A DNA stretch of 64,000 nucleotides, taken from NCBI GenBank assembly GCA_965237895.1, contig CBDEGR010000002.1:710132-774131 (forward strand), written 5' to 3'. The notes beneath the pieces are model-generated. The model was not told the origin of the DNA, searched no databases, and was given only the letters and a program-made list of their open reading frames with translations. The stretch is from Terriglobia bacterium (GTDB lineage Bacteria; Acidobacteriota; Terriglobia; UBA7540; JAPUME01). A program made the position numbers and the translations under genes. Positions 25,026 through 42,883 of this stretch are shown here, in pieces. Each line of letters begins with the position of its first letter. Positions within the stretch are counted from its first letter, which is position 1.

Positions 25026-27923
25026 CTAGGAGCATCCGGATGTACTCCCGCAGTTGAGGCATTTGTAGCAACTTCCGTTGCGTAGCATTAGGGCACCGCA
25101 GTCGGCGCAGGAGGGGGCGTCGGCGGTCAGCAACTGATGGGCGGAAAAACTCCGCCCTGCTCCGTTCTGGTTCCCCTCCCGGCTTTCCCCTGCTGCTTGG
25201 CTTGAGGGGGCAGACTGGGCGGATGCTTGGGCCTGGGAAGGCTGCGAAGCGTCCGGCAGAAACTTCAGCGCAAGCCAGCGGAAGATATAGTCAATAATAG
25301 ATTTAGCGTAATTAATGTTCGGGTTGTTGGTCCACCCGCTGGGCTCAAAGCGCATGTGGGAGAACTTGTCGCACAGGACCCTCAGCGGAACACCGTACTG
25401 GAGAGAGAACGAGATGGCCCGGGCAAAGCAGTCCATCAGTCCGCTGACCGTGGAGCCCTCCTTGGCCATCGTCAGGAAGATTTCGCCCGGGGAGCCGTCC
25501 TGGTAGAGGCCCACCGTCAGAAATCCTTCGTGGCCGCCGACGGAGAACTTGTGGGTGATCGCCTGCCGCTCGTTGGCGAGCTTGCGGCGATAAGGCTGGC
25601 CGACGGCGGAAGATTCCCGAGCCGCGCCGGGAGGAGTTTCGGCCTTCGAAGCGGGGGTTGTCGCCGAGTCCACTTTCGTCGTATTCAACGGCTGGGTGCG
25701 TTTCGACCCGTCGCGATAGATGGCAATGGCCTTGACGCCGAGCCGCCAGGCCTCCGTATAGGTGCGGATAATCTCTTCTGGTGTCGCTGATTCGGGCATG
25801 TTCACCGTCTTGGAGATGGCGCCGGAGAGGAACGGCTGCACGGCGGCCATCATGCGAATGTGGCCCATGTATTGAATCGACCGCACTCCTTGGGCCGGTT
25901 TGAGCGAACAGTCAAAGACGGGCAGATGCTCCTCCTGCAAAAACGGCGCGCCCTCGATGGTGCCGTGCTGGTCGATGTAGCTGACGATTTCGGAGGCCTG
26001 TTCTTCGGAGTAGCCCAGGCGGAGCAGAGCCGTCGGCACGACGTTGTTGACGATTTCAATCATCCCTCCGCCGACCAGCTTCTTGTATTTCACGAGAGCC
26101 AAATCGGGCTCGACGCCGGTCGTGTCGCAGTCCATCATGAAGCCGATGGTGCCGGTCGGAGCCAGCACCGTCATCTGAGCGTTGCGATAGCCGTGCCGGA
26201 CGCCGCTGTCGTAGCACTCCTCCCAAACCTGCTGTGCCGCCGCCCACATTCCCTCCGCCATGGCGCCGACGCGAGCCGGAGGATTCAGGTTTTTCAGCGA
26301 GGCGCGGTGCATGGAGATGACTTCCAGAAAACTGTCCCGGTTCTTCTGGTAGCCGGCGAACGGACCGAGCTCGGCGGCCAGGGCCGAGCTGGTCAGATAG
26401 GCCTGTCCGTGCATCAAGGCCGTCACTGTGGCGGCAAACTCGCGGCCCGCTTCCGAGTCATAGGGATGCCCGTAGGACATCAGCAGCGCGCCCAGATTGG
26501 CGTAGCCGAGCCCCAGCGGGCGATAGTCGTGCGAGTTGCGGGCAATCTTTTCGGTCGGGTAATTGGCGTTATCCACCAGGATTTCCTGAGCGATGATGAC
26601 GACCTCGACGGCGTGGCGGAAAGCTTCCACATCGAAGCGCCCGTCCGGCGTGAGGTAGCGCATCAGGTTGAGCGAGGCGAGGTTACAGGCCGAGTCGTCC
26701 AGGAACATGTACTCGCTGCACGGGTTCGAGGCGTTGATCGGTCCCGTCACTTTGCAGGTGTGCCAACGGTTGATGATCGTATCGAACTGCATGCCCGGGT
26801 CGCCGCACTGCCAAGCGGCGTCAGCGATCTTCTGCATCAGGCCACGGGCGGGATAGATATTGTCCGCCAGGCCGGAGACCACCGCCTGCGTGGACCAGTT
26901 GCGGCCCTCAACCACGGCGTTCATAAACCCGTCGGTGACGCGAACGCTGTTGTTGGCGTTCTGGAAAAAGATGGAGCTGTAGGCTTCGCCGTCGAGCGAC
27001 GCGTCGTAGCCGGCTTCGACCAGCGCCCAGGCCTTGCGCTCTTCCTTTGCCTTGCACTCGATGAATTCCACAATGTCCGGGTGGGAGATGTTTAAGATGA
27101 CCATCTTGGCCGCGCGTCGCGTCTTGCCGCCGGACTTGATGACGCCGGCAAAGGCGTCATAGCCGCGCATGAAGCTAAGCGGGCCCGAAGCGCTGCCGCC
27201 GCCCGAAAGGCTTTCGCTGGCCGAGCGCAACGAGGAGAGGTTCGTGCCGGTTCCCGAACCCCATTTGAAAAGCATTCCTTCCGTCTTCGCCAGGCCGAGA
27301 ATGCTCTCCAGGTCGTCCTGTACGGAGTTGATGAAGCAGGCCGAACACTGCGGGTGACGGTACGCTTCGCTCTCCTTCGCCACCGTGCGGGTAAAGGAAT
27401 CCCAGTACCATCCGGAGCCCTTCAGGGAACGGTTATACTTTTGCCACAGCCCGCAGTTGAACCAGACCGGAGAATTGAAGGCTGCCTTTTGACGGACGAG
27501 CAGATGGGTCAACTCGGCGCGGAAGGCTTCGCCATCGGCTTCGGTCTTGAAGTAGCCGCCGTGGCTCCCCCAATCGGCAATGGTATCGGCAACGCGGGAG
27601 ATGAGCTGCTTCAGACTGGTTTCCCGCTCTGGCGTTCCCAGCTTCCCGTGGAAATATTTGGAGGCCACGATGTTGGTGGCCGTCTGGGACCAGTCTTGGG
27701 GAACTTCGACCCCGGTCTGCTCGAAGAGCGATTTCCCCTTCTCGTTCTGGATGGAGGCGGTACGAAGCACCCATTCCACCTCGTCGAAGGGGTGCACCCC
27801 GGGCGTGGTAAAGAACCGCTTGAGAGAAAGCCCCTTCTTTGTCTGCACCTGCTTTCCGGAACCGTTTCCGGTTGCCACTGATGCAACCCGATCTTTTACA
27901 GGGACAAAATTCTGCTCCGCCAT
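25026..27923 (-). CDS. nrdJ: adenosylcobalamin-dependent (class II) ribonucleotide reductase
   Basis: 965 aa with an RNR large-subunit core (...NPCSEYMFLDDSACNLASLNL...) and a C-terminal Cys-rich tail, CADCGALMLRNGSCYKCLNCGSTSGCS. Confidence 0.93.
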   Translation of the reverse strand: MAEQNFVPVKDRVASVATGNGSGKQVQTKKGLSLKRFFTTPGVHPFDEVEWVLRTASIQNEKGKSLFEQTGVEVPQDWSQTATNIVASKYFHGKLGTPERETSLKQLISRVADTIADWGSHGGYFKTEADGEAFRAELTHLLVRQKAAFNSPVWFNCGLWQKYNRSLKGSGWYWDSFTRTVAKESEAYRHPQCSACFINSVQDDLESILGLAKTEGMLFKWGSGTGTNLSSLRSASESLSGGGSASGPLSFMRGYDAFAGVIKSGGKTRRAAKMVILNISHPDIVEFIECKAKEERKAWALVEAGYDASLDGEAYSSIFFQNANNSVRVTDGFMNAVVEGRNWSTQAVVSGLADNIYPARGLMQKIADAAWQCGDPGMQFDTIINRWHTCKVTGPINASNPCSEYMFLDDSACNLASLNLMRYLTPDGRFDVEAFRHAVEVVIIAQEILVDNANYPTEKIARNSHDYRPLGLGYANLGALLMSYGHPYDSEAGREFAATVTALMHGQAYLTSSALAAELGPFAGYQKNRDSFLEVISMHRASLKNLNPPARVGAMAEGMWAAAQQVWEECYDSGVRHGYRNAQMTVLAPTGTIGFMMDCDTTGVEPDLALVKYKKLVGGGMIEIVNNVVPTALLRLGYSEEQASEIVSYIDQHGTIEGAPFLQEEHLPVFDCSLKPAQGVRSIQYMGHIRMMAAVQPFLSGAISKTVNMPESATPEEIIRTYTEAWRLGVKAIAIYRDGSKRTQPLNTTKVDSATTPASKAETPPGAARESSAVGQPYRRKLANERQAITHKFSVGGHEGFLTVGLYQDGSPGEIFLTMAKEGSTVSGLMDCFARAISFSLQYGVPLRVLCDKFSHMRFEPSGWTNNPNINYAKSIIDYIFRWLALKFLPDASQPSQAQASAQSAPSSQAAGESREGNQNGAGRSFSAHQLLTADAPSCADCGALMLRNGSCYKCLNCGSTSGCS

Positions 27924-28133
27924 CGTGGCGCCTCCGCCGAAGTTGGGTTTGCTGTAACTCGATGTATAAATGATTAACGACTTCAGGCGCTATTCCCGCT
28001 TGGCTCCAGGCACGGAGAAAATCCCTTTACCTATGCCCGCTGCCATCCAAGATTTTATTTCAGGGGATCACTCCCCGTACGCCTGTACCAGCGTGACTTT
28101 AAGAGAGGCCTGTTTCTTTGTCAAGGAAAAAAG

Positions 28134-28179
28134 CCACTAAATATAGTGGGGCAAAATTTACATACTCAAAATGTTGTGG
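28134..28179 (-). promoter_or_regulatory. tandem NrdR boxes overlapping a candidate nrdJ promoter
   Basis: Box 1 is CCACTAAATATAGTGG (28134-28149; 13/16 to the recalled palindromic consensus acaCwAtATaTwGtgt). Box 2 on the minus strand is CCACAACATTTTGAGT (28164-28179; about 12/16). Centres are 30 bp apart. On the minus strand, TTGAGT, 18 nt, then TATATT lie inside the two boxes. The nrdR gene is in the same window. Confidence 0.7.
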
Positions 28180-28424
28180 AAAAGATGTTGAAAGCAGGCC
28201 TTAACCTGTTTAAATCTCTATTTAAGCTGTGGATTAAATTGTGCAAGGTCTGTGTAGTTTATTCAGCCTGGTAGAGGGAAGAAAGACAGCAGAGAGCAGT
28301 AGCGATTGATTAGGACGAAGTCGTTTGAGCCACTTTCCTTGAGATTGGTGGTAAGGAGCAGATTTAGGGCCTGGGAATGGTGAATCCCGGCCTTGGAGGG
28401 TGAAACCGTTGTCCTAAATGGGGG

Positions 28425-28934
28425 CTAGTTGGGAAGAAGCGGTTTTAGGTTTGCCTTGGTAACGACTTTGGTGAGCATCACTTCGGCATCTTCGCGGGAA
28501 GATTTCTTGACCGTGGCGATCTCTTCCACCAGGAGTTGCCAAGCCCGCTCCAGCATCTTCTTTTCCCGGAAGGAGATGGCTTTATCCCGGTTTAGGGTAA
28601 GGAGTATTTTCAGGACCTCGGCGACGTGGCGGAGCTCTCCGGTCCGCATCTTGTCGCAATTTTCCTTATAGCGCCACTTCCAGTTCCTAGCCATCTCACA
28701 AGCGCCGTTCTGCATGAAATCGAGAACGCTGGTGATTTCACGGTTTTTGGCGATGCGACGCAGCCCGACGTTTTCAGCGCTGTTGAAAGGAACAATGACC
28801 CGCATGCTGTTGGATCGAATCCGAAGTAGGTAGTAGCCTTCAGGCTGGCCATTGAGGGATTTCTGTGAGATTTGCTCAATGGTTCCGACTCCATGGTTGG
28901 GGTATACAACCTTCTCGCCTAACTGAAATTCCAT
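28425..28934 (-). CDS. carD: CarD/CdnL-family RNA-polymerase-binding transcription factor
   Basis: MEFQLGEKVVYPNHGVGTIEQISQKSLNGQPEGYYLLRI... is a typical CarD N-terminal Tudor-like domain. Confidence 0.9.
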   Translation of the reverse strand: MEFQLGEKVVYPNHGVGTIEQISQKSLNGQPEGYYLLRIRSNSMRVIVPFNSAENVGLRRIAKNREITSVLDFMQNGACEMARNWKWRYKENCDKMRTGELRHVAEVLKILLTLNRDKAISFREKKMLERAWQLLVEEIATVKKSSREDAEVMLTKVVTKANLKPLLPN

Positions 28935-29007
28935 GATTGGTCTCCTGGAAGTGATCTAGGCTAAGAGTGCTCTAATCTATTTTACAAGTCCCTTAAAGTC
29001 AATGGTT

Positions 29008-34211: not shown

Positions 34212-36944
<2,733 letters not shown>

Positions 36945-37107
36945 GCCGGCCCCCCCATCGAGTCGATAGTTTGATGCGACTTTTATTGTGATCGTGGTCT
37001 CAATCTCCGGTGTCCCCCGGTCTTGGTCCCACAACCTTGCTGGAATAGAATGAAATTCTCAGGACATGCGCGCTTTTTCGTGAGTTCCCCTTGAGGTGTT
37101 CTTGGCA

Positions 37108-38523
37108 ATGAAATCATTCAATGGTGTTGAGGTTCCTTCCGAAGGCGAGACCATCACTTCCAAAGACGGAAAACTTGAAGTTCCACCGAACCCGATCGTT
37201 CCTTTTATCGAAGGCGACGGCACGGGCCGCGACATCTGGAAAGCCTCGCGCCGGGTCTTTGACGCGGCTGTCGAGAAGGCTCTCGGTGGAAAGCGCAAGA
37301 TCGTCTGGTATGAGATCTTCGCCGGGGAGAAGGCGTTCAAGAAGTTCGGCGAGTGGCTCCCGACCGATTCGGTGGAAGCCATCCGGGAATTCCGCGTCGC
37401 CATCAAAGGCCCGCTGACGACGCCCGTGGGCGGCGGCATCCGCAGCCTGAACGTCACGCTGCGCCAAGTGCTGAACCTCTACGCCTGTGTGCGCCCGGTG
37501 AAGTATTACCATGGCGTGCCTTCGCCGGTGAAGGCGCCCGAACGCATGAACGCGGTGATTTTCCGCGAAAATACCGAGGACGTCTACGCCGGAATTGAGT
37601 GGCCCGAAGGGTCTCCCGAGGTGGCCGCGGTCATTGCATTCTTGAATAGTCGTCTCGCTGCCGACGGTTCTACAAAGAAGATCCGCGCGGATTCGGGAAT
37701 CGGCATCAAGCCGATGTCAGTGCTGGGAACCAAACGGCTGGTGCGGAAAGGAATTAAATACGCAATCGAGCGGGGACGGAAGAGCGTCACGCTGGTCCAC
37801 AAAGGCAACATCATGAAGTTCACCGAGGGCGCGTTCCGGGACTGGGGCTATGAGTTGGCGCGGACCGAGTTCCGGAGTGAGATGGTCAGCGAGCGCGAGA
37901 GCTGGATTCTCGGCAATAAAGAGAAGAACCCGAAGCTGAGCGTCGAGGAGAATGCGGCGATGACCGAGCCGGGCTTCGCGCACGGCTCAAAAAAGTATCA
38001 GGAAGGAATCATTGCGGAAGTAAAAGGCTGCTTGGACGCGATCTGGGCCACGCACGGCGACGGCAAGTGGAAGCGGAAGATCATGATCAAGGACCGCATT
38101 GCCGATTCGATGCTCCAGCAGATTCTAACGCGCGCCGACGAGTATGACGTGGTCTGCACGCCGAACCTGAACGGCGACTATCTCTCCGACGCCTGCGCGG
38201 CGCAGGTAGGCGGACTGGGCCTTGCGCCCGGCGCGAATATCGGCGACGAGCACGGGCTGTTCGAGGCGACGCACGGCACCGCGCCCAGGTACGCCGATAA
38301 AGACCTGATCAACCCGAGCGCGGTCATCATGGCCGGCGCGCTGATGTTCGAGTTCCTCGGCTGGGTCGAGGTCCACCACCTGATTGAGAAATCACTGGGC
38401 GAGACGATCAAGCAGCGCCGCGTGACCTATGACCTCGAAAGGTTGATGAAGATGGACGGCGTCCCCGACGTTCAAAAACTCGGCACCGCGGCTTTCGCCG
38501 ACGCCATTATCGGAAATATGTAA
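37108..38523 (+). CDS. icd: NADP-dependent isocitrate dehydrogenase
   Basis: [14 protein letters not shown]...[20 protein letters not shown]...[27 protein letters not shown]. Confidence 0.95.
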
Positions 38524-38562
38524 AACATGGACCGCGTCAAAGCCCGTGCGGCTTAGCCCCCT

Positions 38563-40317
38563 ATGGCAGTGGCCGAGGACATGGCAACCAAAGAGCAAGT
38601 CCAAAGTTGGATTCAATGGTCGCGGTACGATCTGCCTCGAACAGGGGACTACCCGAAGATTAACATCGTAGAGATTAACAGGGTGACATGTCCGTGGCAG
38701 GAGGGAATCTCCGACCTTTTCGAGAGGTCTGACAGAAAATCACAAGGCGAATTGCTTACTTTGTTCGAAGATCAGCTTTCTCGCGACCCTGGCGACATCA
38801 GTAGCAGGCTCACAGCGCTGAGTCTACATTACGCATTATCTCATTACGATTCTATCTTAATTGAAGATCTCGTTGAGGAACCACGCGTCGACTTTACCAA
38901 AAACCTTGGTTATTTTGTGCGCTTGCTGCCAGTCGAGGAGTGCGCGGACTGGCCAACCATTTGTTGGGAAATATCCAACACATACGCAATTCTGGATTGG
39001 GATCGCGCATCGAGGCTATATAAGCACCTAGAAGCTCTCGGCTTAAGGGACGCAGTCAAATTACGGGTGCTGCGAGGACAATTTAATTTTCTAGTTGTTT
39101 ATGATTCAGAATTTGATCCCATTGACTGGGAGCCAAAAATCTATGATTCCACAGATGCCGTTCAGGAATTTCTTATTATTTTGTGGGGTCTCACCGAGAA
39201 GGACAAGAAGGAGTCCAATTTACAAGAGGCAGACCGGGACAGGATATATGACGCAGCAAACGATCTTGAGAAGGCGTTGAACAAACGCAGCGACTTGTCA
39301 CCGGCGTACCAGTCTCTGTTAGCGAAGTGCTACTTTGCGAAGCAGGATTTTCATAATGCCGCCAAGAACTACCAGCAACTTCTCACAATCCTCAAGAATC
39401 ACAGCGTATTCGGCCAAAGCTGAGTCGTCTCTATCCTAAAATCACGAGTCTATAGGGCAGTTGCAAGGAGCTACCAGCTCGCAGGCGAAGCAGAAAAAGC
39501 AATCGATGTACTACACCGATATGCCAATGAGTTTCCCAATGAGAGGGGAATTTACGAGCAGTTGGCCAAGGTCCAAGCTCAAGAAGGACAGTCCTTCGCC
39601 GCTTATGACAGCTTGAACAAGGAGTTGGAGCGTAACCCAGCCTTTGATGAGGACTTGGGGATTTCAATGTCATTAGCCTTGGGAAATTTGGCTCGCCAAG
39701 CTGAGCAAATCGCAACAAAGGTGAAGAGCTACCTGAGGTCAAATCCCGTACGCTTTGAGGCGATAGATTCTCTTCTGAAGGTGTATTGGTCTTCGCTCGT
39801 TAATTTGGACAAGCCAGCACGGGAAGACTGGATTGGCGGCAGCCACTTGATGTTGTCTCTACCCGCAGATTCACAACTCCGCAGGGTTCAAGCGGAGGCG
39901 GCAGCGAACATGTTTGCCAAGGCGGTCGAGCTCGAACTCAAGTCAAAGGTGTTCGAGAAATTTCGGGATTACGTCTCACAGCCCCCTGATTTACGTTCAC
40001 TAGCCAAACAGGAGGGTTCTCTTCCTGACTGTAAGCTGTTCTGTCAGTTCCTTTTCAAGAAAATCCCAATTACCCTCGGCCAAATGCACTATGTCCTTAA
40101 GGACTGCGAAAACTCTAAGCGAGGTATATTGATACAATTCAATCGATGGGTTCAAAAAAGGCAATCTCCGCTTCTAAAAAACCTCTGGTTGTTAGGGAAA
40201 ATCTGCGACATTCGCAGACCTGCTGCGCATGAGAGTATTTCGATAGAAGATGCCGAAAGAATGCATGGGTTATGTCGGGGTCTCCTCCAGGAGTTATTGC
40301 CTATGTCCACACCCTAA
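38563..40317 (+). pseudogene. lower-GC TPR protein with a C-terminal HEPN-like (Rx4H) domain. One ~584-codon frame interrupted by a single TGA at 39421-39423
   Basis: ORFs 38563-39423 and 39562-40317 share a frame, and the only stop between them is the TGA. Codons 39424-39561 continue TPR-like helices (VYRAVARSYQLAGEAEKAIDVLHRYANEFPNERGIYEQLAKVQ). The C-terminus has AKAVELELKSKVF and LGKICDIRRPAAHES. Composition is clearly AT-richer than icd and mdh. Confidence 0.65.
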
Positions 40318-40337
40318 AACAAAGTGACAGAGCTTAG

Positions 40338-41291
<954 letters not shown>

Positions 41292-41398
41292 GCGCGCCTG
41301 CTCTTTTCCCGCCGCCCCGCGGAGGAAACGAAACTCCGTTTTACCTTTCAAAAGAGGGCGCCAATTTTCGCGGAAGCGGAGAAGGGAAACGGAGCGGG

Positions 41399-42883
41399 TC
41401 AGTCGATATAGCCAAGAGACCGCAGGACTTCGATATCTTTCTTTTTCATTTTGGTGGGTTTATGTACGTGGCGGTTGGTGGACTCGAACCAGAGTTTTAG
41501 ACCGTTGATACTGCTTTTGTACTGGCCGTTGGGCTTGCCGGCAAAGATGGGTTTCATCTCCTTGCGGTCCAGCCGGAGGTTGTACTCTTCGATCTTGTTT
41601 CGTGCGGGAGTCCAGATGATCTTCCGGTCACTGCGGATGTGGCCTATTTTCAGAGGCAGGTGCTTTTCGGAGGAGGAGTACCAGAGCCAGCGAAGCCACT
41701 TCGGCGCAATTCCGGGCTTTCCCGAAAACGTGACGATGTAGGTATCGCGGGCGGGCGGCGGTGAGCTGTTGAGGTAAGAACGCAGCGACCTTCCTTGCAA
41801 CGGGAAAGGCGGTTTGATTCCCACCAGATCGAGAATCGTCGGCATTACGTCTACCAAAGATACCCTCTCGTTCACGATTTGCCCGGCGGCCACCGCGGGC
41901 GGGTAGGAGAGAATCAACGGTATTTGGGAGATGTATTCGTAGATATGATTTCCGTGGCCGACGTAGCCTTTCTCTCCCAGGCTCTCACCGTGGTCGGCCA
42001 TGACGATCACCACGGTTGAGTCGCGCAGGCCGAGCTTTTCAAGCTCATCGAGCAGAAGACCCACATGGTGGTCGGTATGGGCGATTTCGCTGTCGTAGCT
42101 CCGGATGCGGGTCGCCATCTCCTTATTCAAGGCGGTTGTCTTCAGCGTACCGGAGGGGTTCAGAGGATGATCGGCGTACTTTTCCTTAAGTTCGTAAGGC
42201 GAGTGCGGGTCAAAGAAGTGGACCCAGAGGAAGAACGGGCGCTTCTTTTTCATCCGCGACTTCATCTGCAGCCAATGGATGGCCTTCGGGGTTACATCTT
42301 CGGCCGGGCGGTACGAACTGATCAATTGAAACGTTTTGGTGAATTTCTCGTTATAGACATCAAAGCCGCGGCGCAGATGGGTCAGGCGATCCTTGAGCGG
42401 CCAGGCGCTGACGAAGGCGCCCGTACGGTATCCGTTCCTTTTGAGAATTCGCTGCAGCGGCAGCACGCGGGGGTCGTTGGCCATCGGCTGGCCGTTGACC
42501 CGGGCGCCGGTCTCCTGCGGGTAGCGGCCCGTGAGGAGGCTGGCGTGCGCCGGCCCGGTTTGCGGAACCGTCGTATAGGCGCGGTCGAAGCGGGCCCCTT
42601 GGCTTGCAAACCGATCAATCCGGGGTGAAGTAATTTTATGGTATCCGTAGCAAGAGAGGTGGTTGGCGCGGAGTGTGTCTATGGTGATCAGCAAAACGTT
42701 CGGGCGAAGCACGGGTTGCTTGGCGCCCGAGGTTTTCCTGGCAACAGCCGGTTTCTTGGCCACAGACGCGACCGCCGGCCCGAGGATAACCCCCAACGCC
42801 AACATCAAGAGCAGAAACCGTTCTTTGAAGTTTACTGCTGAATGCATGAGGCAATAAATAGCACTTTTCCACCCTTCAGTCAA
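41399..42883 (-). CDS. secreted sulfatase / alkaline-phosphatase-superfamily hydrolase
   Basis: Signal/TM then NVLLITIDTLRANHLSCYGY...GPAHASLLTGRYP...VVIVMADHGESLGEKGYVGHG. Confidence 0.8.
   Translation of the reverse strand: MTEGWKSAIYCLMHSAVNFKERFLLLMLALGVILGPAVASVAKKPAVARKTSGAKQPVLRPNVLLITIDTLRANHLSCYGYHKITSPRIDRFASQGARFDRAYTTVPQTGPAHASLLTGRYPQETGARVNGQPMANDPRVLPLQRILKRNGYRTGAFVSAWPLKDRLTHLRRGFDVYNEKFTKTFQLISSYRPAEDVTPKAIHWLQMKSRMKKKRPFFLWVHFFDPHSPYELKEKYADHPLNPSGTLKTTALNKEMATRIRSYDSEIAHTDHHVGLLLDELEKLGLRDSTVVIVMADHGESLGEKGYVGHGNHIYEYISQIPLILSYPPAVAAGQIVNERVSLVDVMPTILDLVGIKPPFPLQGRSLRSYLNSSPPPARDTYIVTFSGKPGIAPKWLRWLWYSSSEKHLPLKIGHIRSDRKIIWTPARNKIEEYNLRLDRKEMKPIFAGKPNGQYKSSINGLKLWFESTNRHVHKPTKMKKKDIEVLRSLGYID

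Follow-up and report, generated by a model that had tools for sequence, protein, structure and literature searches.

In the genome of a Terriglobia bacterium, the genes for isocitrate dehydrogenase (icd) and malate dehydrogenase (mdh) are separated by a single reading frame that is broken by one premature stop codon. This frame occupies positions 38563–40317 on the plus strand of the window, the whole stretch of 64,000 nucleotides that was analysed (contig CBDEGR010000002.1 of assembly GCA_965237895.1). The stop codon is a real nonsense mutation, and the gene is a pseudogene in this genome; at most a 286-amino acid (aa) N-terminal fragment can be made, and the predicted effector domain is lost. 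On balance, we lean towards reading the locus as an inactivated copy of an unannotated sensor-effector family, in which an N-terminal domain and a tetratricopeptide repeat (TPR) region precede a HEPN-like C-terminal domain. For this window the practical outcome is limited, in that the gene no longer works and calls for annotation as a pseudogene. Near-identical strains show an unusually clear allelic series, from an intact gene through versions with one or two stops to one with a different stop and a frameshift, and so provide a natural record of how an accessory effector is discarded.

A premature stop codon and its allelic series

Frame 1 of 38563–40317 comprises 584 codons and a final stop, with one internal stop, the TGA at 39421–39423 (codon 287). 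The two open reading frames (ORFs) that are found mechanically, 38563–39423 and 39562–40317, share this frame. The likely start is the ATG at 38581 (Met7), because the N-termini of homologues (M-x-x-R-E-Q-V-Q-E-W-I) align there with M7-ATKEQVQSWI. A first-pass annotation, made from the sequence alone, had proposed one gene split by one TGA, and an intact allele bears this out. The protein P0045 is 584 aa long and reads ...FGQS-R-VVSIL around codon 287, with Arg instead of the stop. Apart from R287, it differs from the window copy at seven residues. It is encoded on a 1.16-Mb contig (L017), likewise in the context acnA-icd-X-mdh. The 286-aa N-terminal ORF is itself present among public proteins, and its cluster at 90% includes P0045.

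The origin of the stop is apparent from a three-way nucleotide alignment. The window has undergone a C->T change at 39421 (CGA->TGA); L017 and a third near-identical strain (L018) both have C. L018 has been disrupted differently, by a TAC->TAA change in codon 249 and by the loss of 2 bp at codon 300. Two short-read contigs, L103 (ERZ23495085) and L104 (ERZ6111505), each from a separate further sample, match the window at 99.7% identity; they share its TGA and have a second stop at codon 69. Both of these contigs end at window position 39772, the same base inside the gene, though they come from different samples; this suggests that the strains are heterogeneous, or that the sequence just beyond is repetitive or poorly covered. 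The lineage of another homologue, P0027, also includes a split version (P0059 plus P0047).

The window allele has further derived changes at conserved sites. At codon 83 (38809–38811) it has CTC (Leu) instead of the TTC (Phe) of both sister strains, and Phe also stands in 64 of 67 family members (F83L); at codon 250 (39310–39312) it has CAG (Gln) instead of their CGG (Arg), and conservation of this position among close homologues is 90% or more (R250Q). Only the stops and the frameshift set the gene apart from its flanks in the three-strain comparison. Substitution counts (one synonymous and seven nonsynonymous in the gene, vs 11 and 17 in the flanks) are too few to speak for an elevated substitution rate or dN/dS, and this idea was dropped.

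Two explanations would spare the gene. That it still functions is very improbable; it would do so either by readthrough or recoding of the TGA at a low level, or as two polypeptides, the 286-aa N-terminal product and a C-terminal fragment re-initiated at the TTG at 39562 or the ATG at codon 369. The frame does remain open 3' of the TGA with the R, H and E residues of its C-terminal motifs intact, the TTG is preceded at 12 nt by a GAGAGGGGA stretch, and the family includes database entries of 190–240 aa that consist of the C-terminal domain alone. However, codon 287 is a normal Arg codon in the intact allele and falls within a variable loop, and no RNA-family match was found at the locus in Rfam. 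TGA is an ordinary stop here, ending 10 of the 27 long ORFs in the window with a high GC content at third codon positions (GC3). The second stop, the unrelated stops and the frameshift of other strains form a pattern of decay and not of programmed recoding, and many of the short family entries may be fragments of disrupted genes. The other explanation, an assembly or sequencing error in a gene that is intact in the organism, would fit a single-base difference from the intact allele, yet can scarcely be credited; the same TGA stands in two independent short-read assemblies from other samples, and it is a substitution, not a homopolymer indel. Given the frequency of TGA as a stop, the intact CGA allele and the other assemblies with TGA, both recoding (including selenocysteine insertion) and assembly error were therefore rejected.

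Inactivation was recent (R287, CGA->TGA). The first-pass annotation had offered inactivation or leaky readthrough as the meaning of the TGA; the first agrees with the C->T change and with the further lesions in other alleles, and the second is left without support. The genes of relatives have been knocked out repeatedly, and these independent losses in sister strains suggest that the gene is dispensable or costly in the population. For the window genome the question of function no longer matters, since translation ends at codon 287 and leaves out most of the TPRs and the entire C-terminal domain.

Family architecture and the C-terminal domain

A word-indexed search returned 40 homologues, 38 of them at 46–53% identity to the query and two at ~29%. 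Most are ~555–635 aa long, and a few are shorter and partial. None bears a functional name, and TPRs are their only precomputed Pfam domains. A profile of the C-terminal 193 aa was run exhaustively against 1.84e9 cluster representatives (clusters at 50% identity); it matched 512 proteins at E<=1e-3, mostly of ~600 aa, and 240 of these reach E<=1e-10. A second homologue search, with a diverse alignment of the C-terminal domain, gave four proteins without annotation. On these searches, the protein belongs to an unannotated family of more than 500 clusters at 50% identity, with typical lengths of ~580–600 aa. Database entries of 190–240 aa with the C-terminal domain alone also exist, and many short entries (e.g. 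P0043, P0044, P0047 and P0059) may derive from disrupted genes.

There are no matches at curated thresholds in Pfam or NCBIfam for the family. A scan against PADLOC-DB 2.0 assigned the full protein to 0 families, and the isolated C-terminal domains of 38 relatives gave only scattered single-member matches (E 0.002–0.03). The earlier suggestion of an undescribed accessory element holds to this extent: curated matches and a functional name are both absent, and PADLOC offers only these weak, single-member matches.

The family has a fixed three-part architecture, with a helical N-terminal domain, a TPR region and an all-helical C-terminal domain, because the N-terminal domain (~200 aa) recurs in all 58 of the 58 distant relatives of at least 550 aa. 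In the window it spans aa 1–225 (38563–39237). The N-terminal 286 aa are all helical in an AF2 model (m5fcbf02318a6; predicted local distance difference test (pLDDT) 78). In Foldseek this model resembles TPR structures (PTPIP51, KLC-like, MamA) with a probability of 0.92–0.98, but with E 0.07–0.4. Near-invariant polar residues are R82, E136, N139, D78, D129, R171 and Q173. The N-terminal ~230 aa, which the first-pass annotation could match to nothing, therefore form a conserved, family-specific, helical TPR-like domain.

The central region (aa 226–395; 39238–39747) consists of TPRs, as expected from that annotation; membership follows from profile matches and a helical solenoid fold. Pfam TPR_14 scores 23.4 bits at aa 295–336, against a cut-off of 23.5, weaker TPR families match too, and relatives match TPR_2 and TPR_14 down to E 1e-11. 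No NTPase domain (NACHT, NB-ARC or AAA) was found in Pfam and NCBIfam scans of the window protein or the 40 homologues. There is no obvious signal peptide by eye, and the protein is taken to be cytoplasmic in the reading that we prefer.

The C-terminal domain (aa 396–584; 39748–40314) is ~190 aa long and remains untranslated in the window allele. Its AF2 model (m6e7348deb869) is all helical, with 11 helices and a pLDDT of 90.2. Two motifs stand out in the window frame, both 3' of the TGA: AKAVELELKSKVF (E456..K460; 39928–39942), an E-x3-[KR] element in a long helix, and LGKICDIRRPAAHES (R551..H556; 40213–40230), an Rx4H element in the turn between the last two helices. The HEPN superfamily is diagnosed by Rx4-6H, by a polar residue (N, D or H) after the Arg, and by an upstream acidic residue in E-x3-[KR]; HEPN RNases are metal-independent and use His and Arg in catalysis, assisted by the acidic residue (Anantharaman et al. 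2013, PMC3710099). The core of the HEPN fold has four helices that run up and down as two alpha-hairpins, with an insert between helices 2 and 3 and the motif at the last helix.

All of these features can be recognised at the family level in 153 near-complete C-terminal domains. In the upstream element, A-V-E-x-E-L-[KR], the first Glu (E65) is present in 152 of the 153 and the second (E67) in 143, with K or R four residues after E65. In the Rx4H motif the His (H165) is invariant (153/153), and the Arg (R160) occurs in 111 domains and is replaced by His in 30. The next residue (161) is Asn in 116 domains and Arg, as in the window copy, in 10. The window copy keeps the candidate catalytic Arg, His and Glu (R551, H556 and E456), and departs from the consensus in having Arg for Asn.

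The icd-mdh interval and the history of the gene

All neighbouring genes lie on the plus strand, as does the pseudogene. The cluster comprises acnA (aconitase, from Pfam; 34212–36944), icd (37096–38523; Pfam Iso_dh, E 1.1e-82), the pseudogene and mdh (40365–41291; Pfam Ldh_1_N/Ldh_1_C). The spacers are 39 bp between icd and the gene and 47 bp between the gene and mdh; the position and the second value are as first described, and the first value had been given as 40 bp. No promoter-like sites were found in 36900–41600, and no plus-strand terminator-like sites between icd, the gene and mdh; the first such site is at the end of mdh (41283–41298). Flanking repeats were not found within 38300–40600. 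There is no integrase, transposase or tRNA at the locus, where icd and mdh adjoin the gene directly on either side.

In composition the gene differs from its surroundings, as had been noted from sampled stretches. Its GC content of 0.480 is the minimum of the 64-kb window; 1755-bp windows elsewhere average 0.594 (sd 0.020) and, outside the gene, do not fall below 0.516. The same holds for GC3, which is 0.54 in the gene vs 0.76–0.82 in acnA, icd and mdh. Besides the gene, a single 1-kb bin of the window, 28001–29000 (0.485), has a GC content below 0.50. It holds a 169-aa ORF on the minus strand (28425–28934), by eye a CarD/CdnL-type transcription factor, which adjoins a 965-aa ORF on the same strand (25026–27923).

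The gene is also found in related genomes. In a metagenome-assembled genome (MAG) labelled Terriglobia, with a 4.04-Mb chromosome (L006/L015), the homologue P0023 lies between icd and mdh; in another genome (L001), P0027 is directly upstream of mdh. Flanking proteins are 75–85% identical among these genomes, vs 48–55% for this protein. Relative to L006, with the same site, the values are 75–83% for the flanking proteins and 55% for this protein, and relative to L001, where only mdh is shared, 83% for mdh and 52% for this protein. A second conserved site occurs in another group of MAGs, two labelled Candidatus Versatilivorator and the rest Terriglobia or unlabelled contigs; there the homologue is flanked by a GFO_IDH_MocA-NHL gene and a gene for octopine dehydrogenase. 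No papers were found under the name 'Versatilivorator'. At L008:4342-5718 (also in L009 and L010), an insertion just upstream of the homologue contains a Gp49/HigB-like and HI1420/HigA-like pair along with a 216-aa ORF, and at L102:5176-5541 the second site holds only an antitoxin-like remnant.

More distant Acidobacteriota-like loci were collected from Joint Genome Institute (JGI) metagenomes with the Mdh protein of the window, and 51 of them had enough upstream sequence. In 37 of these 51, icd is directly upstream on the same strand, with a gap of 24–200 bp in 33 of the 37. No homologue of the gene was found in these JGI loci. Because icd and mdh are adjacent there without it, the gene is an insertion into an ancestrally tight icd-mdh pair, though an old one, shared by related Terriglobia/Acidobacteriota MAGs. 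Four loci have wider icd-mdh gaps of 640–820 bp (L080:4178-5001, L060:2679-3455, L027:1406-2171 and L052:2024-2662). The gap in L080 contains a PIN-domain (VapC-like) toxin on the minus strand, that in L060 a RibD_C protein, and that in L027 a 250-aa ORF. The icd-mdh spacer of Acidobacteriota seems to be a recurrent landing site for accessory genes.

The idea of an insertion is upheld by this comparison, whereas a recent arrival is not. In every genome examined, and at both sites, the gene has a GC content of 0.48–0.51 and a GC3 of ~0.53, vs a GC content of 0.58–0.65 in the flanks; low GC is therefore a family trait and not a sign of recent arrival. It may be due to repeated replacement from a lower-GC pool, or to selection, e.g. 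for low expression. The icd-mdh spacers of other genomes had been proposed as a check, and their answer is divided: distant loci are without a homologue, but in related genomes the gene is found at the same place, with low GC there too. A recent horizontal insertion through a mobile element was rejected on several counts, namely the absence of repeats and mobility genes, the absence of plasmid, phage or viral homologues, and a position kept at 75–85% identity of the flanks.

Two contexts of more distant relatives resemble defence or mobile regions, which is anecdotal. P0040 (on a contig of JGI 3300050821) is near Vsr and a DUF2357/PDDEXK_7 gene, and P0141 (L020) is near an IS110 transposase, a CHAT-TPR protein, ArdC and DUF6615. 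A partial homologue (54% over 174 aa) stands at the end of a 5.5-kb contig binned as Gammaproteobacteria (L016; VXUA01000033.1), and this could be mis-binning or transfer; all other named hosts are Acidobacteriota/Terriglobia.

Possible function and relation to known systems

In HEPN RNases such as RNase L/Ire1 KEN, PrrC/RloC, RnlA, HepT, Csm6 and Cas13, the active site requires two HEPN domains to come together. Intact relatives of the window gene could work on the same principle. The N-terminal domain and the TPR solenoid would bind a protein or peptide ligand and keep the C-terminal domain inactive; ligand binding or oligomerisation would then unite (or unmask) two C-terminal domains. The resulting dimer would cleave RNA without a metal ion, by means of the invariant His with Arg and Glu, and cleavage would lead to growth arrest as a conflict, defence or stress response. 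A role in defence or conflict is plausible on this analysis; features in its favour are the lower identity of the protein than of its flanks, the GC3 of ~0.53 in every host, and relatives beside a HigB/HigA insertion, beside Vsr and DUF2357/PDDEXK_7, or beside IS110, CHAT-TPR and ArdC. A bolder version, which is possible but doubtful, holds that the relatives are widespread single-protein immune or stress effectors that combine a new ligand-binding N-terminal domain, TPRs and a new HEPN RNase, with neither NTPase nor antitoxin; their AT-rich coding would keep expression low, and they would occupy insertion-prone spacers within core operons, to be lost repeatedly when costly.

This picture is complicated by a number of observations that weigh against the sensor-effector reading, most of which concern the C-terminal domain. 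Profile and fold searches, of the kind that the first-pass annotation had asked for, gave no significant result. Foldseek against the PDB has a best E of 0.23, and against the PDB and BFVD there is nothing at E<0.2; sequence-profile searches of the PDB with this domain were empty. Pfam scans at E<=10 covered the window protein, 41 whole relatives and 38 isolated C-terminal domains, and no HEPN family reached its gathering score; the best, HEPN_Swt1, has 18.8 bits vs 27.5. The top sub-threshold matches, obtained with two family consensus sequences and several members, speak for HEPN in that they fall in its families: HEPN_Swt1 (E 0.002), RiboL-PSP (0.003), MAE_28990 (0.003), HEPN (0.011), DUF4145 (0.014) and Abi_2 (0.014), with a HepT-like profile at E 0.12 in one member only. 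Two controls bear on these matches. Replacing the R, N and H of the motif by Ala abolishes them, except PF05168 with one consensus (E 0.008), and a reversed consensus gave a spurious match to COG5_C at E 2.5e-6, above the gathering score. Because the mutants lose them, the HEPN matches mostly restate the motif and are not independent of it, and after both controls their clustering was dropped as independent evidence. For helical, charge-rich domains in general, E-values from scans with consensus sequences are not trustworthy without such controls. Further, ~30 of the 153 domains, mainly of the second-site group, have H-N-x-A-K-H instead of R-N-x-A-x-H in full-length, conserved genes; this subgroup may use a changed set of catalytic residues or may be non-catalytic, and it argues against a strict need for canonical catalysis. 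P0033, also at the second site, retains the motif Arg. No partner or antitoxin gene was found beside the window gene or in the homologue contexts examined, and searches of plasmids, phages and IMG/VR contigs yielded no homologue. Its long-term place among housekeeping genes is atypical for a defence gene and, taken together with the His-for-Arg subgroup and the missing partner, leaves room for a non-catalytic or regulatory role.

Much of this also speaks for the chief rival, which is unlikely, though to be taken seriously: the C-terminal domain would be a new helical domain that mimics the HEPN signature, and the protein a non-nucleolytic TPR scaffold or adaptor in the course of being lost; in host-associated Acidobacteriota it might serve, for example, as a lineage-specific regulator or as a factor in protein interactions. 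It would explain why no profile or fold matches any HEPN family significantly and why the weak matches are motif-driven, and it would agree with intact genes that have His for the catalytic Arg and with stable residence in the icd-mdh unit, where the lack of terminator- and promoter-like sites between the genes makes co-transcription probable. The invariant R82 and E136 of the N-terminal domain could, in turn, form the real functional site. Mimicry would, however, have to reproduce an invariant Glu in E-x3-[KR] together with R-N-x3-H, whose invariant His lies between the last two helices of an all-alpha domain, exactly as in the published HEPN diagnostic; HEPN families are, moreover, known to be mutually undetectable by sequence. 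Several Roquin entries, which contain HEPN domains, are among the Foldseek matches (template-modelling (TM) scores 0.33–0.39). The fold match with the highest probability in the PDB is nevertheless an HEPN entry, 2q00 (probability 0.63, TM 0.33/0.47, E not significant), which is listed as HEPN-T/PaREP1 (PMC3710099).

From the conserved residues and the predicted fold, the C-terminal domain is probably a new, divergent HEPN family. What remains of the HEPN-like Rx4H C-terminus proposed initially is the motif and the acidic helix, conserved in the 153 domains, without a significant profile or fold match. Judged by these scans, the domain belongs to no named HEPN family: Abi_2, HepT, Swt1, DUF4145, LA2681 and every other Pfam HEPN family were tried and stay below threshold. 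In particular, the proposed kinship with Abi_2/AbiD-F-type proteins falls away; the window protein has no match to Abi_2 (PF07751), and that of the family consensus (E 0.014, 16.2 bits) is lost in the motif mutant. Should the domain prove to be an active HEPN RNase, PADLOC, Pfam and NCBIfam would be missing a sizeable family of sensor-effectors made of one protein, and one that is found outside classical defence islands, inside a tricarboxylic acid cycle gene cluster.

Among known systems, the RNase domains of the HEPN superfamily (PMC3710099), in particular the Swt1-like/DUF4145/RiboL-PSP/Abi_2 group, are the natural point of comparison. Like these, the C-terminal domain is all helical and has both motifs, with E-x3-[KR] on an early long helix and R-N-x3-H placing the invariant His just before the last helix. 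It also shares a fused repeat domain as a possible sensor, fast evolution and an atypical composition, and it may share extra helices between the core helices. It differs from the named families in its scores (HEPN_Swt1 18.8 vs 27.5 bits, Abi_2 16.2 vs 25.6, HEPN 16.3 vs 22), in its larger size of ~190 aa with two extra N-terminal helices that contain invariant Trp18 and Trp32, and in its large subgroup with His for the motif Arg.

Closest in architecture are the LA2681-type and C6orf70 (DUF4209)-type HEPN proteins, for which table 1 of PMC3710099 gives fusions to TPR repeats. These also combine TPR and HEPN in one polypeptide without an NTPase, but neither family has a Pfam match among the proteins scanned at E<=10, and a conserved N-terminal domain of ~225 aa precedes the TPRs here. 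The HepT/MntA (HEPN/MNT) type VII systems have an HEPN-type Rx4H in common with the window gene, as well as dispensability and frequent loss-of-function alleles; unlike them, the gene has no adjacent MNT or other partner gene, and its protein is ~5 times larger. In STAND/Avs-type NTPases with TPR sensors and HEPN effectors, a repeat sensor is likewise coupled to a nuclease effector (predicted in the present case), whereas no NTPase domain is detected here and the order is sensor N-terminal, effector C-terminal. The element is best placed as a pseudogenised member of an N-domain-TPR-HEPN-like family, within the HEPN effectors that are fused to repeat sensors, and not as a new kind of system.

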